Shown here one piece after another: positions 42,970 through 52,426 of a stretch of DNA of 64,000 nucleotides. The DNA is from Thermoanaerobaculia bacterium. GTDB lineage: Bacteria > Acidobacteriota > Thermoanaerobaculia > UBA5066. The translations under genes and the position numbers were made by a program. The DNA lies in the NCBI GenBank assembly GCA_038245905.1, contig JBBRRY010000008.1, positions 1 to 64,000 on the forward strand, read 5' to 3'. Position 1 is the first letter of the stretch, and each line of letters opens with the position of its first letter. The notes under the pieces are model-generated. The model saw nothing but the letters and a program-made list of their open reading frames with translations, did not search any database and was not told the origin of the DNA.

Positions 42970-45900
42970 CTACTGGAACACGCCGTTCACGTCGAGGACG
43001 ACGTCGACGGTTCCCGCCGTCGTGTTCCAGATCCAGAACGAGCCGTCCGGCGCCAGCTTGACCATCGCGTTGTTCGCGCGCACCTGTCCCCGCCGGATCG
43101 AAACGGTGTTGGCGTTCGGCGGCGTGGCGAGGTCGCCCGAGTAGACGACGACGGATCCCTCGGCATCCAGCGACAGGACCGTGACGTTCGCCGAGAGCGC
43201 CACCATCCCGGACGGGACGCCACACACTCCATTCGCGACGTACTTTCGCCCGGAGGCGGGGCCGATCGAGGGACCTCCCGCCGGGACGCTTCGGGTGTCG
43301 AGGAGGCGGCAGGGGGCGAGCGTGTTGAACCCGCCGCACGTGGCGGCGACCGGGACGGGCACGGACGAGGAGGAAACACAGCCGGCCACCGAGACGACGA
43401 CCGCGACGGTCGTCATGCCGGCGGCCGAGACGCTGAACGCGATGGAGGGCGACCCCTGCCCGGAGCCGATCGTCCCGTTCGTGACCGTCCAGGCGTACGT
43501 CGCGCCCGCTCCGGCGTTCAAAACCGAGGCGGTCCCGGACGCGGCGTTCGGGAGACAGAGGCTCGAGGGCGCCGTAATCGCTGCGGACGAGCCGTTCACG
43601 ACGGCCGAAATCACGCCCCCGGGGCCCGTGCACCCGTTCACGGTCGCCGTGACGAGATAGACACCGCTCGCACCGGGAGACACGTTCGCGATCGCTGGAT
43701 TCTGGAGCGACGACCTGAAGCCGTTCGGCCCCGTCCACGCATAGGTCGCGTTCACGATCGTCTGGGCGGTCAGGGCGAGCGTTCCACCGGCGCAGACCGG
43801 GCCTCCCGTTCCCGCGACGGGCGCGGCGGGCGGCGCGTTGACGGTCACGGCCGTGCTCGCGGCCGTCGAACATCCGTTGACGGTCGCGATCACGACGTAC
43901 GTTCCGGCCGCGGCGGCCGTGACGTTCGGGACCGTTGGATTCTGGAGCGAGGACGTGAACCCGTTCGGGCCCGTCCAGGCGTACGTCGCATTCGCAACCG
44001 GAGCGGCCGTCAGGGAAAGCGTTCCGCCCGGGCAGACCGGGCCACTGTTGCCAGCCGTCGGCACGGGCGGCGAAGGATTGACGACGCCCGGAGTCTCGGA
44101 CGTGGACGTCTGCCCCGAGAACGTGCGGACGACCGTGTACATGCCCGAAGCCGCGGGCGTCGCGAAAGGCACCGTCGGGTTCTGCAGCGTGGACGAGAAG
44201 CCGTTCGGGCCCGTCCACGCGAGGGTCGCGCCCGAGAAGGTGGGCGCCGCGAAAAGCGCGAGAGACGAACCGGCGCAGACGGCGCCGCCGTTCGAGGCAA
44301 TGACCGGCGGCGCGGCGACGGCGAACGTGACGCTCGCGCCGATCGCGTATCCGCCGAGCGTGATCGTGAAGGTGCCGGGAGCCGTGAACTGGAACGCCGT
44401 GCCCTGGCATCCCGTACCGGAGCACCCCGTGGGCGAGGCCGACGAGCCGAAGTTCCAGATCGTGGAGACGGGCGGGGTCGCGTCGACCGAGCCGCTGACG
44501 ACGGCGTAGACCGTGATCGTGTCTCCGAGGCTCACCGGAATTCCGTCGGAGCAGCCGCCGCCGGCTCCGATGCAGGGGGCGAGGCCGTTCACGCGGACCG
44601 TGATCACGGGCGGCGCGGGCGTCACGACGATCGGCCAGGCGGCCGGATCGGAGACGCCGGACACGGACGGCGTCCAGTACGTCACGATCGGGGACGCGCA
44701 CGAGCCCGTCGACGTGTACGAATAGCGGATGCGAAGCCAGTAGGTGCCCGCCGTCGACGGCACCGGAACCGTAGCCGTCAGACCGCCACCGAGAGGGCTC
44801 ATCGCGAGCGGCGACCAGCTCCCGGCGGCGCACGTGCCCGCGCCGGCGTTGCACAGGCTGTATTCGAGGCCCGATCCGCACGCGGAGGCGCCCGACGCCA
44901 CACGGGACGTGTCCGTCACCGAGACCGAGGTCCCCGCCACGACCGTCGTCGCGATGCCGGTGAAGACGAGCGAGACGTCGGTGACGGCAATCGTTCCGAG
45001 GCTTCGGGTGCAAGGGCTGCCGCAGTCGGGACTCGTGTAGCCGGTGGGATACGGCACGGTCAGCCAGTAGTAGTACGTGCCCTTCGCACCGAAATTGTGG
45101 TTGCAGGACGCGGCCGTGCACGTCGCGTCGAGCGCCAGCGACGCCGGGCTCGATCCGAAGTACCACTTGTAGCCCGAGGCCAGCGGCGTCCCGTCGGAAC
45201 CGCTCACGACCGGGTTGCCGAGGAGAATGCTCGGATTCTGCAGCCGGACGGACGGCACCTTCCACGTGATCGGAAACGCCTTCGTGTTTCCAGGGCCGAG
45301 ATCGTTCGCGGCCTCGAGCGCGAGACGAAGCGATGCCGTCGCGCCGGCGGCCGCGCTCGCGACGAAGTCGCCGTTCGCCGTCGCCGAGGCCCAACAGCCC
45401 GCTCCGGTCGACGGCACTCCGCCGTTGCGCGGGTCGCACGGCCCGTAAAGAGCGATCGTCGCGGGGAGAGCCGCTGGAGACGCGAGGTCGGGGTTCCGCA
45501 AACGGGGAAATGAACCGTTGTCCTCGGCCGCATGCCAGTCGAAATCGAAGCGCCATGCCGTGAGGGCGTGAAGAGAAACGGCGCTCGGCGCGATCCGGAG
45601 CTTCGTGCCGACGAACACCGGGTCATCGGGACTCAGGGGGCACGGGCTCGCCCCCGGGCACGTATCGTATTGCACCTGAATGTCGTCGACGGGAGGAGCG
45701 GGCACCGTCACGCAGGTCATCGGGATCACGTAGGCGGACAGGGCGGTCGGGACATACGCGTAGATCGTGTCTCCGGCGCCCGCGAGCCCGCGCATGTAGT
45801 AGTTCAGTCCGAACGCCGGATACGTCGCCGAGTCGAGGTCGACCTGGCCCGGCGTCACGCTTCCCCATGCGGCCACGTTCGTGGAAAACAACCGGTAGAG

Positions 45901-46965
45901 GACGCCCGACCCGGCCCTCTTCGCCCACATCAGAGCCGTCAGGCTGCTGCCGCTCGCGACGAGCGCCGAAACGCCGCCTCCCGCCCACGTCTCGCCGGAC
46001 GGCTGCGGAATCAGGAAAGGCTGGCCGACCACCGTCTTGACTCCGCCCTTCACGGAAACGAGCGCGTATGCGACGGGATTCGAAAGCTCGATGAGGACCC
46101 AGAGCTTTGCGGGGTCCGTCGGATCCATCGCCGCGCTCAGCGACGTAGGCGTGTTCCCTCCAAGGTCGCTGCTCGAGATCGTGACGAGGCCGAAGCTTCC
46201 GGAGATGCTGCCGATCGGGCCGGGATTCGACGCATCCACGATCCGGATCGTGTCCTGGTTGAGATAGACGACGTTGTTTCCCGCGAGCGTGAGAAACACG
46301 CCGCCGGGGCCCGCGACCTCGGAGGGCAAGTTCACGGCGGCCATGGGTCCGGGAAGATTCGAGATGTCGGCCACGGTCAGCGAACCCGGCGCAATCCGGG
46401 AAGAGCCGACCAACGCATACGCGATGTACCGGTTCGAGATCTTCTGGACGACCATTCCGCCCGCGTTACGCGGCGAGAAGCCGCCCGTCACGTTGTTGAA
46501 CCCGCTCGCGGCCGCCGTGGCCGCGACGGAGTCGTAGTCCGGTGCGGCATTCCCGTTAAGCCCGAGAGCAAGACGCTGGCCGTCGGCCGACACGCCGATC
46601 GAACCGACGTAGCTCTGGCCGTCGCCGGCGTAGGGCACCTCGCCCGAGTTGATCATGTTGCGGTAGAGGATGGCGCTCGGGCTGGCCGGATTCGAGAGAT
46701 CGAGAATCGAATAGCCGAACGATTCCTGCATCAGCATGCGCGGGCTCCCGCCCACCTGGTAAATCTGCAGGTCGTAATTCTTCGCCGAGTTCAGACCGAA
46801 CGGCCTCGAAGCACCGGGAGGGTTCGGCTCAAAAGAGAGGGGCGCGGAGTTCAGCGTGCACTGTGCGGCGGCCCGATCGGCCGGAACGCAAAGCAGCGCA
46901 GCGCCGCAAGGAATCAGGGCGAGCAGGAGCCTCCCGGCGCGAGACTTGTTCGATTCTTGCCGCAT
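42970..46965 (-). CDS. Large Cys-rich exported/surface protein: propeller-like N-terminus, PKD/Ig-like repeats, shared C-terminal domain
   Basis: Signal peptide; three WTGPNGFxSxLQNP Ig-like repeats; C-terminal [13 protein letters not shown]...DVNGVFQ. Confidence 0.85.
43590..44310 (-). repeat. Three tandem ~80-aa Ig-like coding repeats (boundaries approximate)
   Basis: GxVCxGxxLxLxA...[18 protein letters not shown]...GxYxV repeated three times; DNA repeat CCGTTCGG.CCCGTCCA. Confidence 0.85.
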
Positions 46966-46990
46966 TTCCGTGGACAACAATGAGTTGAAG

Positions 46991-47005
46991 GCAAGCTCGA
47001 TGCCA
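46991..47005 (-). promoter_or_regulatory. Putative sigma54 (-24/-12) promoter of the large surface protein
   Basis: Minus strand TGGCATCGAGCTTGC matches TGGCAC-N5-TTGC spacing, 25 nt upstream of the ATG; about 210 bp of non-coding DNA upstream. Confidence 0.65.
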
Positions 47006-47214
47006 TGCTATGGACCCCGGCGTCCAGGCCATTTCGGTCGTCGCACGATGACTCATGGTCGCCCGGAAACCGGCCGATGGCGATATGCGTGAAACAACAT
47101 GAGGATCCCTGTGAGACCACTCACCATTCTCAGCCCCTAACGGTCCGACATTTCTTGGTGCGCCGACCTCCGAAACCGACGAAAAGTGGGTGCCGGCGGA
47201 CAAGTGGCTGCCCC

Positions 47215-48858
47215 CTACTCAAACCAGCCGTTCACGTCCACGATCACGTCGAGGGAGCCTGTCGCGCTGCTCGCGATCTTGAAGGCACCCGACCCATCCG
47301 ATGCGAGGCCGATGAGGGCGTTGTTCGCGCGCGTCTGTCCGGTGCGGAAGGCGAGCGTCAGCGCGTTCGGGGCCGCCGGGAGATCGCCGGGGTAAAGGAC
47401 CAGCGTCCCCGCGGCAGCCGTGTTCGTGACGGTCACGTTCGCCGAGACGGATCCGGCGCTTGCCGGAATCCCGCACACCCCTGGCGCGACAAAACGCCGG
47501 GTCTCCCCCGCCGCGAGGGTGGCCGCCGCAATGCGGGTGTCGAAGGCACGGCACGGGGGGAGGGGATGGAACGCGAAGCCGCTCTTGACGATCGCGAACG
47601 AATCCCGGACGACGCCGTCGACGCGTAGGAAGCGCGCGTCGAGACGCGCCCCGTTCACGTCGATCACGAGCGAGCCGCGTTCGGCGAAGCCGCGAAGCAT
47701 TGCCGGGTGGTTCAGCGCCCCGCTCCCGAGCTGGCCGCCGCTCCCCGCGACGACGTAGACGGTCCCCGCGTGCGGCGTCCGCGCCGCGGGCTTGCGGTAG
47801 GCACCGGCCGCCGCCGGGTCTCCCGTCCCTCCGTCCTTCTTCATGCTCGCCGTAAACGTCGTCGAATCCCCGTAGTGCCCGTCGATGAGGTACGAGCGCT
47901 CGTAGACGTGCGAGTGGCCGCAGAGGACGAGATCGACGCCGCCGGCCTCGAGAACCGGATTCACGAACTGGCGCATCTCGACGAGCTCCGTCTCCGTGTC
48001 GGAGTCGTGCGTCCCCTTCGTGTATGGCGGGTGGTGCCAGTACGCGACGATCCACGTCTGGGCGGTCGCCGCGAGATCGGCCGCGAGCCAGGTGAGCATC
48101 GGGCCGCCAGGAAGCCGGCTCACGTCGTATGCGTCGAGGCAGACGAAGTGCACGTTGCCCGCGTCGAAAGAGTAGTACGCCTCCGAGCCCGAGGCGACGC
48201 CGCCGGCCTCGGCGGCCTTCGGAAGCCGGAAGATGTCGAAGTAGACGCCCGTGCCCGCGCTCCCGTTCGCCGAGCCGCCGTCGTGGTTCCCGAAGGCAGG
48301 CCAGAGCGGCATCGACGCGAGAAGGTTTGGAAACGTTCCGAAGACGGCGGCCTGGTATTCGGCGTCCGTGCCCGCGACGTATGCGTTGTCGCCGAGCATG
48401 AGCCACAAGTCCGCCGGGCGGGCTCCGGCGTACGCGAGATACGCGTCGCGAACGGCGCGTGCGTTCGCGTCCGCGGTGCCGGAGTCCCCGACGGCCCAGA
48501 TCCTGAGCGGCGTCGCCGCCCCGGTAAGAGGCGGCGTCACGAACGAGGCCGGCGGACCCGGGCCGAGGACGCCCGAGGCGGTGCCGATCGTGTAGGTGTA
48601 GCGCGTGCGGGGTGCGAGACCCGTGACAGCGACCGCATGCTCGGTCGCGAGGGCGGGATCCGAGAAGACGAGGGTCAGCGAGGCCGGATTCGTCCCCGCG
48701 AAGACGCGTCCGTCCGCGGGGACGTCCGTGCGCCAGCACACGATGACGGAGGACGGCGTCGCGGTCTGAAGGTACGGCCCTCGCGTGACGGCGAGCGCGA
48801 GCGCGCCATGCGCCGCGAGCGAAAGGCCCGCGAGGACGGCGCATCGGAGTCCGCGCAC
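47215..48858 (-). CDS. Exported purple-acid-phosphatase-like metallophosphoesterase with shared C-terminal domain
   Basis: GTG start overlapping the upstream TAG; signal peptide; RGPYLQ, GDSG, LGDNAY, GNHD, HHPPY, GHSH; C-terminal FHPLPPCRAFDTR...DVNGWFE. Confidence 0.9.
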   Translation of the reverse strand: MRGLRCAVLAGLSLAAHGALALAVTRGPYLQTATPSSVIVCWRTDVPADGRVFAGTNPASLTLVFSDPALATEHAVAVTGLAPRTRYTYTIGTASGVLGPGPPASFVTPPLTGAATPLRIWAVGDSGTADANARAVRDAYLAYAGARPADLWLMLGDNAYVAGTDAEYQAAVFGTFPNLLASMPLWPAFGNHDGGSANGSAGTGVYFDIFRLPKAAEAGGVASGSEAYYSFDAGNVHFVCLDAYDVSRLPGGPMLTWLAADLAATAQTWIVAYWHHPPYTKGTHDSDTETELVEMRQFVNPVLEAGGVDLVLCGHSHVYERSYLIDGHYGDSTTFTASMKKDGGTGDPAAAGAYRKPAARTPHAGTVYVVAGSGGQLGSGALNHPAMLRGFAERGSLVIDVNGARLDARFLRVDGVVRDSFAIVKSGFAFHPLPPCRAFDTRIAAATLAAGETRRFVAPGVCGIPASAGSVSANVTVTNTAAAGTLVLYPGDLPAAPNALTLAFRTGQTRANNALIGLASDGSGAFKIASSATGSLDVIVDVNGWFE

Positions 48859-50951
48859 TACTCGAACCAGCCGTTCACGTCCACGATGACGTCGAGGGGG
48901 CCTGCCGTAGTGTTCGCGATCTTGAAGGCGCCGGACCCGTCCGCCGCGAGCCCGACAAGCGCATTGTTCGCACGCGTCTGTCCGGCGCGGAAGGCAAGCG
49001 TCACCGCATTCGGAGCCGCCGGGAGATCGCCGGGGTAGAGGATCAGCGTCCCGGCCGCGCTCGTGTTCGTGACCGTGACGTTCGCGGACACGACCCGCGC
49101 GCTCGCGGGGACGCCGCAGATGCTCCTTACGTCGAAGCTCCTGATCGCCCCGGCGCCAAGAGGCGGCCCACCGAGCGGTCCTATCGCGCGCCGCGTGTCG
49201 ATCGCGCGGCAGGGCGTCAGCGTATGAAAGGCCGTCGCGCCGGGTCCGGTCGCCGTCGCGCCCGCCGCGACGCCCGTGCTCGCATTCCAGTACGAGCCGC
49301 TTGCACTCGTCTCGAGCCGCACGGCGCGCACGAGATACGTGTAAGTGCCTCCGGCGACGCCCGGGTCGACGAACGATGTTCCGGCGACGAGTGCCGGCGT
49401 GACCCGCGTGAACGGACCCGCGGGACCCGCTCCGCGATAGACGTGGTACCCGGCAACCGTGTCGGTGGAGGCGGTCCACGAAATCGAGGCGCTCCCGGCT
49501 CCGCCGGCCGCGGTCACGTTCGCGGCGGGCGCCACGACGTGCATACGGAGCGTGGGATCGCCCATGAGGGCGATGTGGACCGACGGGCCGTAGCCGTAAA
49601 AGTAAGTCCCCGAATTGTTCTCGGTCAGGCGCGCCGCGTACCCGATCGTCTCGCCCATCGCCATGTGATGCACGTGCCACGCGGGCCGGCCGGCCCAGGC
49701 GCATGTGAGCCCGTAGGTCGTCGTCGCGAGCGGCGCGCGCAGGAAGTCGTTCGAGACGTCCCAGTCGCCGAAGTAGCTTCCGAAGAGGAATGTGAAGGCG
49801 GTCTTCGTGTCCGTCGCCGCGAAATTCGACGTCGAGCCGACCCCGCCGGCGCCCTGATAGTTTCCGCCGCCGCAGCCATACGCCCAGAGATAGCCGTTTG
49901 TCGCGAGCGTCCCGAACCAATCGAGCGCGAAGACGTTTGCGGGCCCGAAGAAGGCCGAGAACGCGCGCCAACCCGTGGACGCGAACGCCTCTCCTCCGAA
50001 CGCGCCGAAGTTGTCGTCGATCAGGCCGCGCGCGGGCAGCGTCCAGGCTTTGACTCTGAAGCCGTGTTCCTTGTTCAGGTACTGCCTGAGGAGATCGCTC
50101 TCCATCTTCGGGGCGAAGGCGGGCATGTCTGCGAGATCGACGCGCCCGACGCCCAGCTCGACCGTTCCACCGGGAGCGGAGCTCTGGTCGAACTTGCCGT
50201 CGCCCGCGACGTTGTTCTGCCGGCCGGTCCCGCCGAGGTTCGAGACGTCCGTCCAGACACCGTCCATGTCGCCGTAGTAGAGGTCCGCGGGCCAGGCCCC
50301 CACGTGATCCCCGTGCCCGTCGGGCGCGAGGCTGCCCGAGTACGGGACGGGCACGTGCCCGAACAGGAAGACGCTGTTCACCCGCGTCGGATCGGTGTCG
50401 TAGTCGGCCTTGATGAGCGCCTTCACGGACGGCACCGTCGCGTTCCGCGCGACGTCGTGGCGGAGCACGGTCCAGCCGTCGGCCGCTAGATCGAGCTGCA
50501 GCCGCGTCAGCTCCGCCGCGAGAGGGGCCGCCATCGTGGCATCGACGACGAGGACGACCTTCCCGCGATCTTCGACGAGCGGGATCTCGATGCCGGTCGC
50601 GACGTACCCGAGGCCCGAGACGCTCGCCGCCCGGACGACCTGATACTCGTACTTCGCCCCGACCGTCACGCCGTTGTCCACGAAGCCCGTCGCCGTCCCC
50701 GGAAGGGTCGCGGCGACCGAGCCCCACGTCGAGACCCCCCACGCCTTCCGGTAGACGGTGTGCTGCGTGGCGCCCGCGAACGCCGGCCAGCTCAGCGTGA
50801 TCCTCGGGGGAGTGCTCTGGACGGCCGCGGTCACCTGTACGGCGTAATCCGCCGTCGCCTGGGCGACGGCCGGCCCGTCCGGCAGGGCGAAGGTCCAGGC
50901 GGCGACGAGAACTCCCACGAGAAGGCGCCTCGTCAGGCGGAAATTGTTCAT
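48858..50951 (-). CDS. Exported FN3-domain protein with C25 (gingipain)-like central region and shared C-terminal domain
   Basis: Signal peptide; two FN3-like domains; LFGHVPVP, ADLYYGDMDG, ELGVGRV, IALMGDPTL; C-terminal FHTLTPCRAIDTR...DVNGWFE. Confidence 0.8.
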   Translation of the reverse strand: MNNFRLTRRLLVGVLVAAWTFALPDGPAVAQATADYAVQVTAAVQSTPPRITLSWPAFAGATQHTVYRKAWGVSTWGSVAATLPGTATGFVDNGVTVGAKYEYQVVRAASVSGLGYVATGIEIPLVEDRGKVVLVVDATMAAPLAAELTRLQLDLAADGWTVLRHDVARNATVPSVKALIKADYDTDPTRVNSVFLFGHVPVPYSGSLAPDGHGDHVGAWPADLYYGDMDGVWTDVSNLGGTGRQNNVAGDGKFDQSSAPGGTVELGVGRVDLADMPAFAPKMESDLLRQYLNKEHGFRVKAWTLPARGLIDDNFGAFGGEAFASTGWRAFSAFFGPANVFALDWFGTLATNGYLWAYGCGGGNYQGAGGVGSTSNFAATDTKTAFTFLFGSYFGDWDVSNDFLRAPLATTTYGLTCAWAGRPAWHVHHMAMGETIGYAARLTENNSGTYFYGYGPSVHIALMGDPTLRMHVVAPAANVTAAGGAGSASISWTASTDTVAGYHVYRGAGPAGPFTRVTPALVAGTSFVDPGVAGGTYTYLVRAVRLETSASGSYWNASTGVAAGATATGPGATAFHTLTPCRAIDTRRAIGPLGGPPLGAGAIRSFDVRSICGVPASARVVSANVTVTNTSAAGTLILYPGDLPAAPNAVTLAFRAGQTRANNALVGLAADGSGAFKIANTTAGPLDVIVDVNGWFE

Positions 50952-51028
50952 CCGAATTGTAGTGAAATGTTCTCACGGGGGCCGAGAGAACGGAAGCGCG
51001 GATAAGATGGGGCGAGCAGAGGGGCGCC

Positions 51029-52426
51029 ATGCCGACACGCATCGAAAAGGACACGATGGGCGAGATCGCGGTCCCGGCCGACCGCTACTGGGGCGCGCAG
51101 ACGCAGCGTTCGCTCCAGAATTTCGAGATCGGCGAGATCCGATTCACACGTCCGTTCATCCGCGCCTTCGGGATCCTCAAGCGGGCGGCCGCCGACGTGA
51201 ACCTGGCCCTCGGGCTCCTCCCTCCGGCGAAGGCGGCGCTCATCGCCGCCGCCGCGGAGGAGGTCGCCGACGGAAAGCTCGACGCTCACTTTCCCCTCGT
51301 CGTCTTCCAGACCGGCAGCGGCACGCAGACGAACATGAACGTGAACGAGGTGATCTCGAACCGCGCGATCGAGCTGGCGGGCGGAGTCCAGGGCTCCAGG
51401 GACCCGATTCACCCGAACGACGACGTGAACCAATCGCAGTCCTCGAACGACACCTTTCCGGCCGCGATGTCGATCGCCGCCGTCTCCGAGATCGAGGAAC
51501 GGCTCCTTCCCGAAGTGAAAAGGCTGCGCGACGTCCTCGACGCCAAGGCGAAAGAATTCGCAGACGTCGTGAAGATCGGGCGCACCCACCTGCAGGACGC
51601 GGTTCCGCTCACGCTCGGGCAGGAGATCTCCGGCTGGGTGTCGCAGCTCGACCACGGCGCAGAGCACGTCCGGCAGGCCCTCCCCCACCTCCTCGAGCTC
51701 GCGATCGGCGGCACGGCCGTGGGCACCGGGCTCAACACGCATCCCGAATACGCCGTGCGCGTCGCGAGGCGTGTCGCCGAGCTGACGGGCCATCCCTTCG
51801 TCACGGCGCCGAACAAGTTCGAGGCCCTCGCGGCACACGACGCCCTGGCCTTCGCCTCGGCGGCCCTCCGCACGCTCGCCGGGTCTCTCATGAAGATCGC
51901 GAACGACGTGCGCTGGCTCGCGTCGGGCCCGCGCTGCGGGATCGGCGAGATCCGGATCCCCGAGAACGAGCCCGGGAGCTCGATCATGCCGGGCAAGGTC
52001 AACCCGACGCAGGCCGAAGCGCTCACGATGGTCGTCGCGCAGGTTTACGGAAACGACGCCGCCGTGGCGTTCGCCGCGAGCCAGGGCAACTTCGAGCTCC
52101 ACGTCTACAAGCCCGTCATCATCCACAACGTGCTCGAGTCGACGCGCCTCCTCACGGACGCATGCCGCAGCTTCCGTCTCCACTGCGCCGAAGGGCTGAC
52201 GGCTGACCGTGCGCGCATCGACGAGCTCGTGAAGAAGTCTCTGATGCTCGTGACGGCCCTGAACCCCCACATCGGATACGACAAGGCCGCCGCGATCGCG
52301 AAGAAAGCGCACCAGGAAGGCCTCACGCTCAAGGAGGCCGCGCTGAAGTCCGGCCACGTCACGTCCGAGCAGTTCGACGCGTGGATCGATCCCTCGAAGA
52401 TGGTGGGGCCTGGCGGAACCGACTAG
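51029..52426 (+). CDS. fumC: Class II fumarate hydratase
   Basis: [46 protein letters not shown]. Confidence 0.97.

Follow-up and report, generated by a model that had tools for sequence, protein, structure and literature searches.

Three adjacent genes in a window of 64,000 nucleotides (the whole stretch analysed here, positions 1 to 64,000 of contig JBBRRY010000008.1 of the Thermoanaerobaculia bacterium assembly GCA_038245905.1) encode secreted proteins with different cargo that end in one and the same module of about 120 residues. The module belongs to a large protein family in which the number of copies in a protein obeys a rule: one, or a multiple of three (1, 3, 6 or 9 copies). Three copies of the module are predicted to bind one another and the closest solved structure is the trimeric tip of an adhesin fibre. 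The module is thus very probably part of a three-fold or pseudo-trimeric assembly, as judged from the structure models. By analogy with known surface proteins, we tentatively favor the reading that this assembly serves as an anchoring or adhesive head on secreted proteins.

The three module copies of the window (Table 1; the module coordinates exclude the stop codons) share 51 invariant columns in an alignment of 121, two cysteines included. They are 45-75% identical to each other (48 and 52% to module 1). A profile built from the three recovered each of them in the genome with E-values between 1e-64 and 1e-67, far past chance, confirming that the three tandem proteins end in one homologous module, as had been proposed in an initial annotation made from the sequence letters. 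The Cys pair noted at that time (C9/C40; residue numbers follow the gene-3 module, which was the copy modelled and used for trimer prediction) is invariant in all 17 genomic copies and in every repeat of 30 relatives with a triple tandem. Each window protein starts with a basic stretch followed by a hydrophobic stretch, in agreement with the signal peptides that had been assigned to all three; every signal-peptide call given here stems from our own hydrophobicity rule and not from SignalP. As to the cargo, Pfam matches to PKD (2.7e-10), Ig_2 and Ig_7 in gene 1 and to Metallophos (1.5e-14) and Pur_ac_phosph_N (1.3e-6) in gene 2 supported the earlier labels of Ig repeats and metallophosphoesterase. 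The label of gene 3 was borne out in part: its sole Pfam match, Peptidase_C25, is sub-threshold (E 5e-4; 19.8 bits against a cut-off of 23), and fibronectin type III appears in the NCBI name of its orthologues ('fibronectin type III domain-containing').

A profile search of 31,802 six-frame open reading frames (ORFs) of the genome (G000; 3.8 Mb, 113 contigs, 96% complete) identified 17 full module copies, a set that was stable over four iterations, and in every case there was a single copy per protein. Twelve copies, including those of the window, are located C-terminally on cargo. The other nine cargo proteins are two M12B reprolysin-like proteases with TIG domains, an M11-like protease, an M10-like protease, an FG-GAP protein, a DUF11/PKD protein, an HZS_alpha-like protein, a protein without Pfam match and a frameshifted GSDH-like protein. 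Four copies are found at the N-terminus directly after the signal peptide, one of them preceding DUF1800 and two (contig C42) preceding Gly-rich fibre-like proteins, while the fourth belongs to a third fibre-like protein (C65) that is cut by the contig end. The remaining copy is cargo-less and consists of a signal peptide and the module (169 aa, C10 66844-67350). Because of the four N-terminal copies and the cargo-less copy, the module is neither strictly C-terminal nor cargo-dependent. Signal-like starts were obtained for 16 of the 17 module proteins; for the seventeenth it lies on the upstream piece of its frameshifted gene.

Several of these proteins have further features. The cargo-less protein contains an extra insert with two additional cysteines and is encoded directly upstream of the FG-GAP module protein; small frames composed of a signal peptide and the module also adjoin module genes in the relatives G093 and G024, of which the latter is a genome flagged as unpublished on which its frames and its module count given below rest. 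The fibre-like proteins (C42:4028-5806 and C42:8393-10195, minus strand; C65:5633-6724) are laid out as signal peptide, a linker of the 'NWSAPSTWSAP' type, module and Gly-rich repeats. The C-terminal domains of the two on C42 match phage families of unknown function (phrog_28536 and phrog_17490, E 2e-17 to 2e-8); no phage-family match was found for the copy on C65, which comprises only the start of the fibre-like part. These proteins may form trimeric fibres whose N-terminal end carries the module. At C10:82780-84009 (minus strand) a signal peptide and a GSDH-like (PF07995) piece are followed in another frame by the rest of the propeller and the module, which from the sequence appears to be a frameshifted gene or an assembly error.

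The family as a whole was defined by an exhaustive HMMER search of 1.84 billion representatives, which returned 35,973 proteins at E≤1e-3 (each a cluster at 50% identity) and 11,610 at E≤1e-30. Among the best 150 of the 35,973, a sample that favors multi-copy proteins since scores add up, three copies were present in 129 proteins, six in 13 and nine in one, besides five copies in five proteins and four and seven copies in one each. Of these 150 proteins, 136 have the module block at the C-terminus (with a gap of no more than 5 residues), 8 have it at the N-terminus and 6 internally. In a second sample of 118 proteins, selected with some bias by word sharing with the gene-3 module and including gene 2 of the window, one copy was present in 87, three in 29, six in 2 and two in none; here 114 were C-terminal and 4 N-terminal. 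The description of the module as single and strictly terminal, given initially, therefore holds for the three window genes and fails for the family, in which N-terminal and tandem copies occur. Signal-like N-termini were detected in 84 of 128 and 69 of 103 matches that start with methionine, compared to 4 of 150 and 0 of 108 control segments from inside the proteins. The cargo is diverse and includes GH10, GH16, GH18, GH113, S8, M12B and M11 enzymes, phosphoesterases, multihaem cytochromes, streptogramin-lyase-like propellers, RCC1, FG-GAP, CAP, DUF11 and PKD domains as well as GloVer 'choice-of-anchor' repeats. Thus, the module is a real shared domain that is carried by varied signal-peptide cargo and is overwhelmingly terminal. 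Its relatives are found in Actinomycetota besides Acidobacteriota, as had been stated in the initial annotation. Within an even sample of 151 Acidobacteriota genomes, the module was present in five (G000 with 17 copies, G024 with 12, G093 with 4, G040 and G106 with 3 each); the family is patchy in the phylum and expanded in this lineage.

In the triple tandems the repeats keep their positional identity: among 158 such proteins, the nearest non-self neighbor was located at the same position for 386 of 474 repeats, which indicates at the sequence level that the triple unit is inherited as one cassette. In a FastTree phylogeny of 578 modules, chosen by similarity, 97 of the 104 single-copy modules fell into one pure clade (support 0.52), and the first, second and third repeats formed several position-pure clades.

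The gene-3 module was modelled with AlphaFold2 from an alignment of 17 rows, resulting in an all-beta sandwich (pLDDT 91, pTM 0.84). The model was compared to 48,161 PDB representatives with VIA, an aligner that is independent of Foldseek. The best match was the C-terminal tip of the Bd2133 fibre (Z 9.7, root-mean-square deviation (rmsd) 2.8 Å over 107 residues, 10% identity), in which residues 1-124 of the module are aligned with residues 911-1031 of the chain. Foldseek also matched the Bd2133 tip (E 2.8e-4). The next match had a Z of 7.5 and was followed by generic jelly rolls (viral capsids, CBM35/36). In a library of viral structures, matches with TM scores up to 0.67 were obtained; the top two are unnamed, and a Xanthomonas phage DUF2793 protein, a tail-fibre protein and a tail-collar fibre protein were placed at ranks 3, 13 and 28. 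In PMC10769870, the Bd2133 tip is described as a previously uncharacterised beta-sandwich without PDB homologue, and its trimer as packing about the strand 989-999.

Three gene-3 modules were predicted to bind each other with ipSAE values of 0.94, 0.93 and 0.94, compared to 0.00 for the best control, and the runs agreed in at least 96% of the contacts with a partner pLDDT of at least 93. In the calibration, the mark applied to the trimer was reached by 20 of 30 solved pairs and by 1 of 23 solved single chains; the calibration used two copies and their own alignments, so that these counts hold only roughly for three modules. One face of the predicted interface is formed by P8-C9-R10, S50/N52/T54/T56, T87-N91 (T87-R-A-N-N91) and D119/N121/G122, the other by Y67-P68, P75-A81, R83, N90-L93 and F124. 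According to the model, most of the family-defining motifs are inter-subunit contacts. The motifs D13-T14-R15, R32 and C40-G-x-P43, invariant or nearly so, lie outside the predicted interface. In a collinear alignment, the strand about which the Bd2133 trimer packs would correspond to approximately residues 79-89 of the module, inside the predicted interface.

A natural triple tandem of 395 aa (P0065) was modelled with a pLDDT of 93.4 and a pTM of 0.90. The latter value suggests that the three repeats form a compact body and no beads on a string, and each of them matched the Bd2133 tip with a Z of 8.6-8.7.

Domain databases do not contain the module. With Pfam at E≤10, the three modules yielded only a chance match to RNA_pol_A_bac (E 0.14), and NCBIfam at E≤1 gave nothing on the module in the three full-length proteins or in module 2 alone. 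The gene-3 module, the sole module scanned against PHROGs, had no match there. No Pfam family covers the module in 35 sampled relatives and no NCBIfam family covers it in 16 sampled proteins (15 relatives and the cargo-less copy of this genome); module-only proteins carry no precomputed Pfam label. The 30 nearest clusters of the ESM Atlas are all labelled 'hypothetical protein', share no Pfam 38.1 family and come most often from Acidobacteriota and Actinomycetota. When all PDB sequences were searched, nothing significant was returned for the 17-module profile at E≤10, 8OND and 8OK3 included, and nothing for a profile of 30 triple tandems at E≤1. Neither outcome that the initial annotation had named as refuting its reading was observed: no sequence match to a characterised domain was found, and the homologues are mostly terminal and extracytoplasmic. 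In the literature searched, the module and the 1/3/6/9 rule with the predicted trimer are undescribed; Supplementary Fig. 20 of PMC10769870, with its Foldseek relatives of the Bd2133 tip from Synechococcaceae and Competibacter, may overlap with the family. Hints at S-layer proteins were followed and discarded: PF05124 (S_layer_C) on P0008 reached a summed score with no single stretch passing, NF052345 (the Kustd1514 S-layer model) on P0219 had an E-value of 7e-4 with 17 bits against a cut-off of 1400, and the PDB entries 8q1o and 7qlh matched at E about 1 and were lost with a deeper profile. The three weak and individually non-significant matches may reflect chance or a very distant relationship. 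The NCBIfam 'bluetail' domain on P0025 and P0090 was likewise rejected, as its matches extend over 22 residues, score close to the cut-off and contain no stretch that passes.

On this basis we propose a model in which one module of about 120 residues would be the protomer of a three-fold symmetric beta-sandwich head. Proteins with a single copy, such as all 17 of this genome, would join as three chains via the module, while in proteins with three tandem copies the same head would be formed inside one chain as a pseudo-trimer. The triple tandem leaves the cargo monomeric; therefore, trimerisation of the cargo is not the general purpose, and the assembled head itself would be under selection. 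This head would be the functional unit and would most likely bind a surface polymer non-covalently, with a glycan of the own envelope or matrix, or a target surface, as candidate ligand. It would thereby keep secreted enzymes (metalloproteases, phosphoesterase, and glycosidases elsewhere) as well as Ig-repeat and fibre adhesins attached, a task that is performed by the triplicate SLH and CWB2 modules in Gram-positive bacteria and by fibre-tip domains in Bdellovibrio and phages. That triplication, placement at either terminus and diverse cargo match SLH and CWB2 proteins, and that the nearest fold is an adhesin tip, argues for the anchoring or adhesive head. Of the two roles offered in the initial annotation, the envelope anchor therefore stays viable and is now favored, as an architectural analogy to SLH/CWB2, and the export tag is not supported.

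A number of points weigh against this proposal. Apart from Bd2133, the fold matches are generic jelly rolls with Z-values of 6-7.5. The trimer is a prediction from models, as is the compact triple tandem, and the solved Bd2133 trimer may be part of the training data of the predictor. The selection of the two samples of relatives, described above, affects the copy-number counts. With five of 151 genomes, the module is not a feature of acidobacterial envelopes in general. A free lectin would account for the cargo-less copies just as well as an anchor would, and the window genes have housekeeping neighbors and no polysaccharide genes next to them.

The module might instead be a substrate-targeting carbohydrate-binding module (CBM) or a free lectin, which binds environmental glycans and brings enzymes to their substrate with the avidity of three sites and without anchoring to the cell. 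We regard this as rather unlikely. The beta-sandwich or jelly-roll fold, with CBM35, CBM36 and CBM6 among the fold matches (Z 6.5-6.8), would be compatible with it, but these matches are no better than those of viral capsid jelly rolls, and no CBM profile of Pfam matched the modules or the 35 relatives. Several relatives carry GH10, GH16, GH18 or GH113, the cargo-less proteins exist, and the trimeric TNF-like lectin BC2L-C (N-terminal domain) appeared among the weak Foldseek matches (E 3.8e-2). However, for a large part of the cargo (metalloproteases, phosphoesterase, cytochromes c, CAP domains) no carbohydrate serves as substrate, and this breadth argues against a substrate-specific CBM. A module that trimerises or stabilises secreted proteins and binds nothing would explain the strong predicted homotrimer with its conserved motifs in the interface, and also that the fold relatives are trimerising fibre tips. 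Such a purely structural role is improbable, as cargo-less copies would be without a role, the commonest form with three tandem copies in one chain keeps the cargo monomeric, and the conserved D13-T14-R15, R32 and C40-G-x-P43 outside the interface leave room for a ligand site.

The initial annotation had mainly regarded the module as a secretion or sorting signal, by which a dedicated machinery moves or attaches the protein at the outer membrane and may cleave it. The combination of a signal peptide with a conserved terminal domain on diverse cargo, C-terminal in 114 of 118 and 136 of 150 relatives, is in line with this, the C-terminal domains (CTDs) of the type IX secretion system (T9SS) are also folded beta-sandwiches, and the genome contains no PEP-CTERM and no above-threshold T9SS CTD that would compete, although control genomes were equally silent. 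On the other hand, the module follows the signal peptide at the N-terminus in 4 of 17 proteins of this genome and is N-terminal in 8 of 150 and 4 of 118 relatives and internal in 6 of 150. Among the highest-scoring matches tandems of 3, 6 or 9 copies are commonest, and no NCBIfam sorting-signal model matched. Because of the N-terminal placement, the cargo-less copies, the tandem triplets, the occurrence in Actinomycetota as well as in diderm Acidobacteriota (diderm and monoderm phyla) and the lack of a recurrent partner gene in the window or within 3 kb at 80 related loci, a cleaved tag of the T9SS or PEP-CTERM type does not fit; together with the predicted trimer head this makes a sorting signal very improbable.

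The neighbors of the window genes encode a Zn-dependent dehydrogenase, a fumarase, an MFS transporter, a GGDEF protein, a Sel1 protein, an S9 peptidase, a cyclophilin and HtrA; no secretion or processing gene was found among them. Clustering of the 3-kb flanks of 80 related loci (457,810 bases, 2,087 ORFs of at least 100 aa), which were found by narrow patterns from a three-row alignment and are biased to close relatives, revealed no conserved partner gene, since non-module families recurred in at most 11 of the 80 loci. The recurrent families were syntenic housekeeping genes (fumarase-like, quinone-oxidoreductase-like and aldo-keto-reductase-like as read from the sequence) or shadow frames. 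Seven full module copies are spread over the region from 15 to 84 kb of contig C10. Polysaccharide genes (Table 1) are interspersed among six of them (59.6-69.3 kb and 82.8-84 kb) and a partial match at the contig end, near 88 kb; this arrangement is a possible link of the module to an envelope glycan. The gene content also indicates that the organism makes lipid A and is diderm, because LpxC is encoded further upstream on C10.

The window has a G+C content of about 68%. Gene 1 starts either at TTG 46980 (longest ORF) or at ATG 46965 (MRQESNK..., followed by the signal-like hydrophobic stretch). The GTG start of gene 2 (48858-48856) overlaps the TAG stop of gene 3 (48860-48858) as TAGTG (window 48856-48860), an arrangement which suggests that the C25-like/FN3 protein and the metallophosphoesterase are translationally coupled. 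Both genes have orthologues in relatives (P0157-P0186; P0190, P0191, P0198). Gene 3 and most of its orthologues carry the precomputed Pfam label PF25833.1, which was not reported by the local Pfam copy; the label cannot denote the module because gene 2 has the module without the label. Two overlapping ORFs on the minus strand were rejected: 47219-48844 (541 aa), which covers gene 2, is an Arg-rich wrong frame and not a gene, and 47215-51054 (1279 aa) is the frame of gene 2 continuing through out-of-frame sequence of gene 3 and is not a gene as listed.

Table 1. Positions of the genes and module copies of the window and of the polysaccharide genes on contig C10
Feature	Coordinates	Strand	Evidence
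Gene 1, secreted PKD/Ig-repeat protein, about 1331-1336 aa	42970..46980	minus	ORF, Pfam, hydrophobicity rule
Gene 2, purple-acid-phosphatase-like metallophosphoesterase, 547 aa	47215..48858	minus	ORF, Pfam, hydrophobicity rule
Gene 3, secreted protein with weak Peptidase_C25-like region, 697 aa	48858..50951	minus	ORF, Pfam, hydrophobicity rule
Module copy 1 (gene 1), 121 aa, up to stop codon	42973..43335	minus	profile E 2.4e-65
Module copy 2 (gene 2), 121 aa, up to stop codon	47218..47580	minus	profile E 1.8e-64
Module copy 3 (gene 3), 125 aa, up to stop codon	48861..49235	minus	profile E 1.0e-67
Region with six full module genes, a partial module match and polysaccharide genes (DUF2079 membrane protein, NAD-epimerase/dehydratase, GT2+GT1 fusion, GT4, ABC-2 permease and ATPase)	C10:57000-88324		

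In a further-reaching and quite unlikely version of the model, Thermoanaerobaculia-like Acidobacteriota and some Actinomycetota would possess an undescribed system for surface display, with the module as its docking unit. Modules that occur singly on different cargo proteins would then co-assemble with the adjacent cargo-less proteins into homo- or mixed trimers, each of which docks on a specific polysaccharide of the envelope or matrix that is produced by the glycosyltransferase and ABC-2 exporter genes of C10. If true, this would be a beta-sandwich counterpart of the anchoring of SLH domains to secondary cell wall polymers (SCWP) in a diderm, with combinatorial bouquets of enzymes. The family comprises at least 35,973 clusters, is found in soil and sediment bacteria on secreted proteases, phosphatases, glycosidases, cytochromes and adhesins, and has no entry in the Pfam and NCBIfam copies searched. 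The one-or-three rule together with the predicted trimer and the link to an adhesin-tip fold provides a concrete and testable mechanism. Should the module be an anchor, it would explain how the little-studied Acidobacteriota hold exoenzymes at the cell surface, and the pseudo-trimeric principle of SLH/CWB2 would be realised in a new fold and in diderm bacteria as well. Should the trimer part alone hold, a natural alternation of homotrimer and single-chain pseudo-trimer within one family would remain, and with it a candidate display scaffold.

Among known systems, the module can be compared to sorting signals, to jelly-roll heads and to surface anchors. Like the T9SS CTD (TIGR04183, Por_Secre_tail), it is a folded domain at the C-terminus of diverse signal-peptide cargo. 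Unlike the T9SS CTD, it is not strictly C-terminal and not single, has cargo-less forms and occurs in Actinomycetota. TIGR04183 did not match the three full proteins (NCBIfam, E≤1), and in the whole genome one match was obtained elsewhere, below the cut-off (21.4 bits versus 23). It also differs from PEP-CTERM and LPXTG tags, in which a short motif near the C-terminus is followed by a transmembrane helix and a basic tail, as the window proteins end with ...DVNGWFE or ...DVNGVFQ at the stop codon, inside a predicted beta-strand; TIGR02595 (PEP-CTERM) had no match in the genome, and control genomes were silent as well.

With CBM6, CBM35 and CBM36, the module shares a beta-sandwich of similar size that is appended to secreted enzymes, at fold scores within the generic jelly-roll background; there is no profile match and its cargo extends far beyond carbohydrate-active enzymes. 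To our knowledge, neither a rule of three nor trimerisation is found in these three families. The C1q and TNF heads (4DOU, 5HKJ, 4ZCH, engineered single-chain trimers included) likewise are jelly-roll trimers that end extracellular proteins, as is predicted for the module, but no Pfam match links them and a single-chain C1q aligned over 209 residues at 5.2 Å (VIA Z 7.1). In a Foldseek search with the natural triple tandem, single-chain C1q and adiponectin trimers came first (E 2.7e-6 to 2.6e-4). These matches do not establish the C1q/adiponectin assembly for the module, as the TM score was about 0.25 and the rmsd above 20 Å, the E-values reflecting three jelly rolls in series.

The closest structural counterpart is the tip of the MAT adhesin fibre Bd2133 of Bdellovibrio bacteriovorus (PDB 8OND, 8OK3; PMC10769870). 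Both are terminal beta-sandwiches on extracellular proteins, and the equivalent strand would lie in the predicted trimer interface of the module (residues 75-95 included). In contrast to the tip, with which it has no profile similarity at the low identity given above, the module has the invariant Cys pair and the PCRxxDTR motif. The Bd2133 tip is present as one copy on a beta-helical fibre, whereas the module family is found on enzymes, at either end and in 3, 6 or 9 tandem copies.

In its deployment the module most resembles the SLH and CWB2 (PF04122) anchors. According to PMC4973711, CWB2 and SLH domains occur in triplicate at the N- or C-terminus of diverse signal-peptide cargo, and their repeats differ by position (those of CWB2 are not interchangeable) and act as one pseudo-trimeric unit. 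The module triplicates, which by their pTM would act as a unit, resemble them in their position-specific repeats, in their placement at either terminus and in their diverse cargo, a likeness of deployment rather than homology. In C. difficile, a polymer-biosynthesis locus adjoins the anchor-bearing genes, and here polysaccharide genes interleave the six copies on C10. Differences are the lack of Pfam SLH or CW_binding_2 matches in the modules and 35 relatives, the all-beta sandwich, the diderm host and the dominance of single copies in this genome. Judged by sequence, the module does not appear to be a member of the SLH, CWB2, T9SS-CTD, CBM or C1q families. Taken together, terminal, three-fold and non-covalent binding modules on secreted proteins are known, and the novelty here lies in the fold, in the phyla and in the way in which homotrimers and single-chain trimers alternate.

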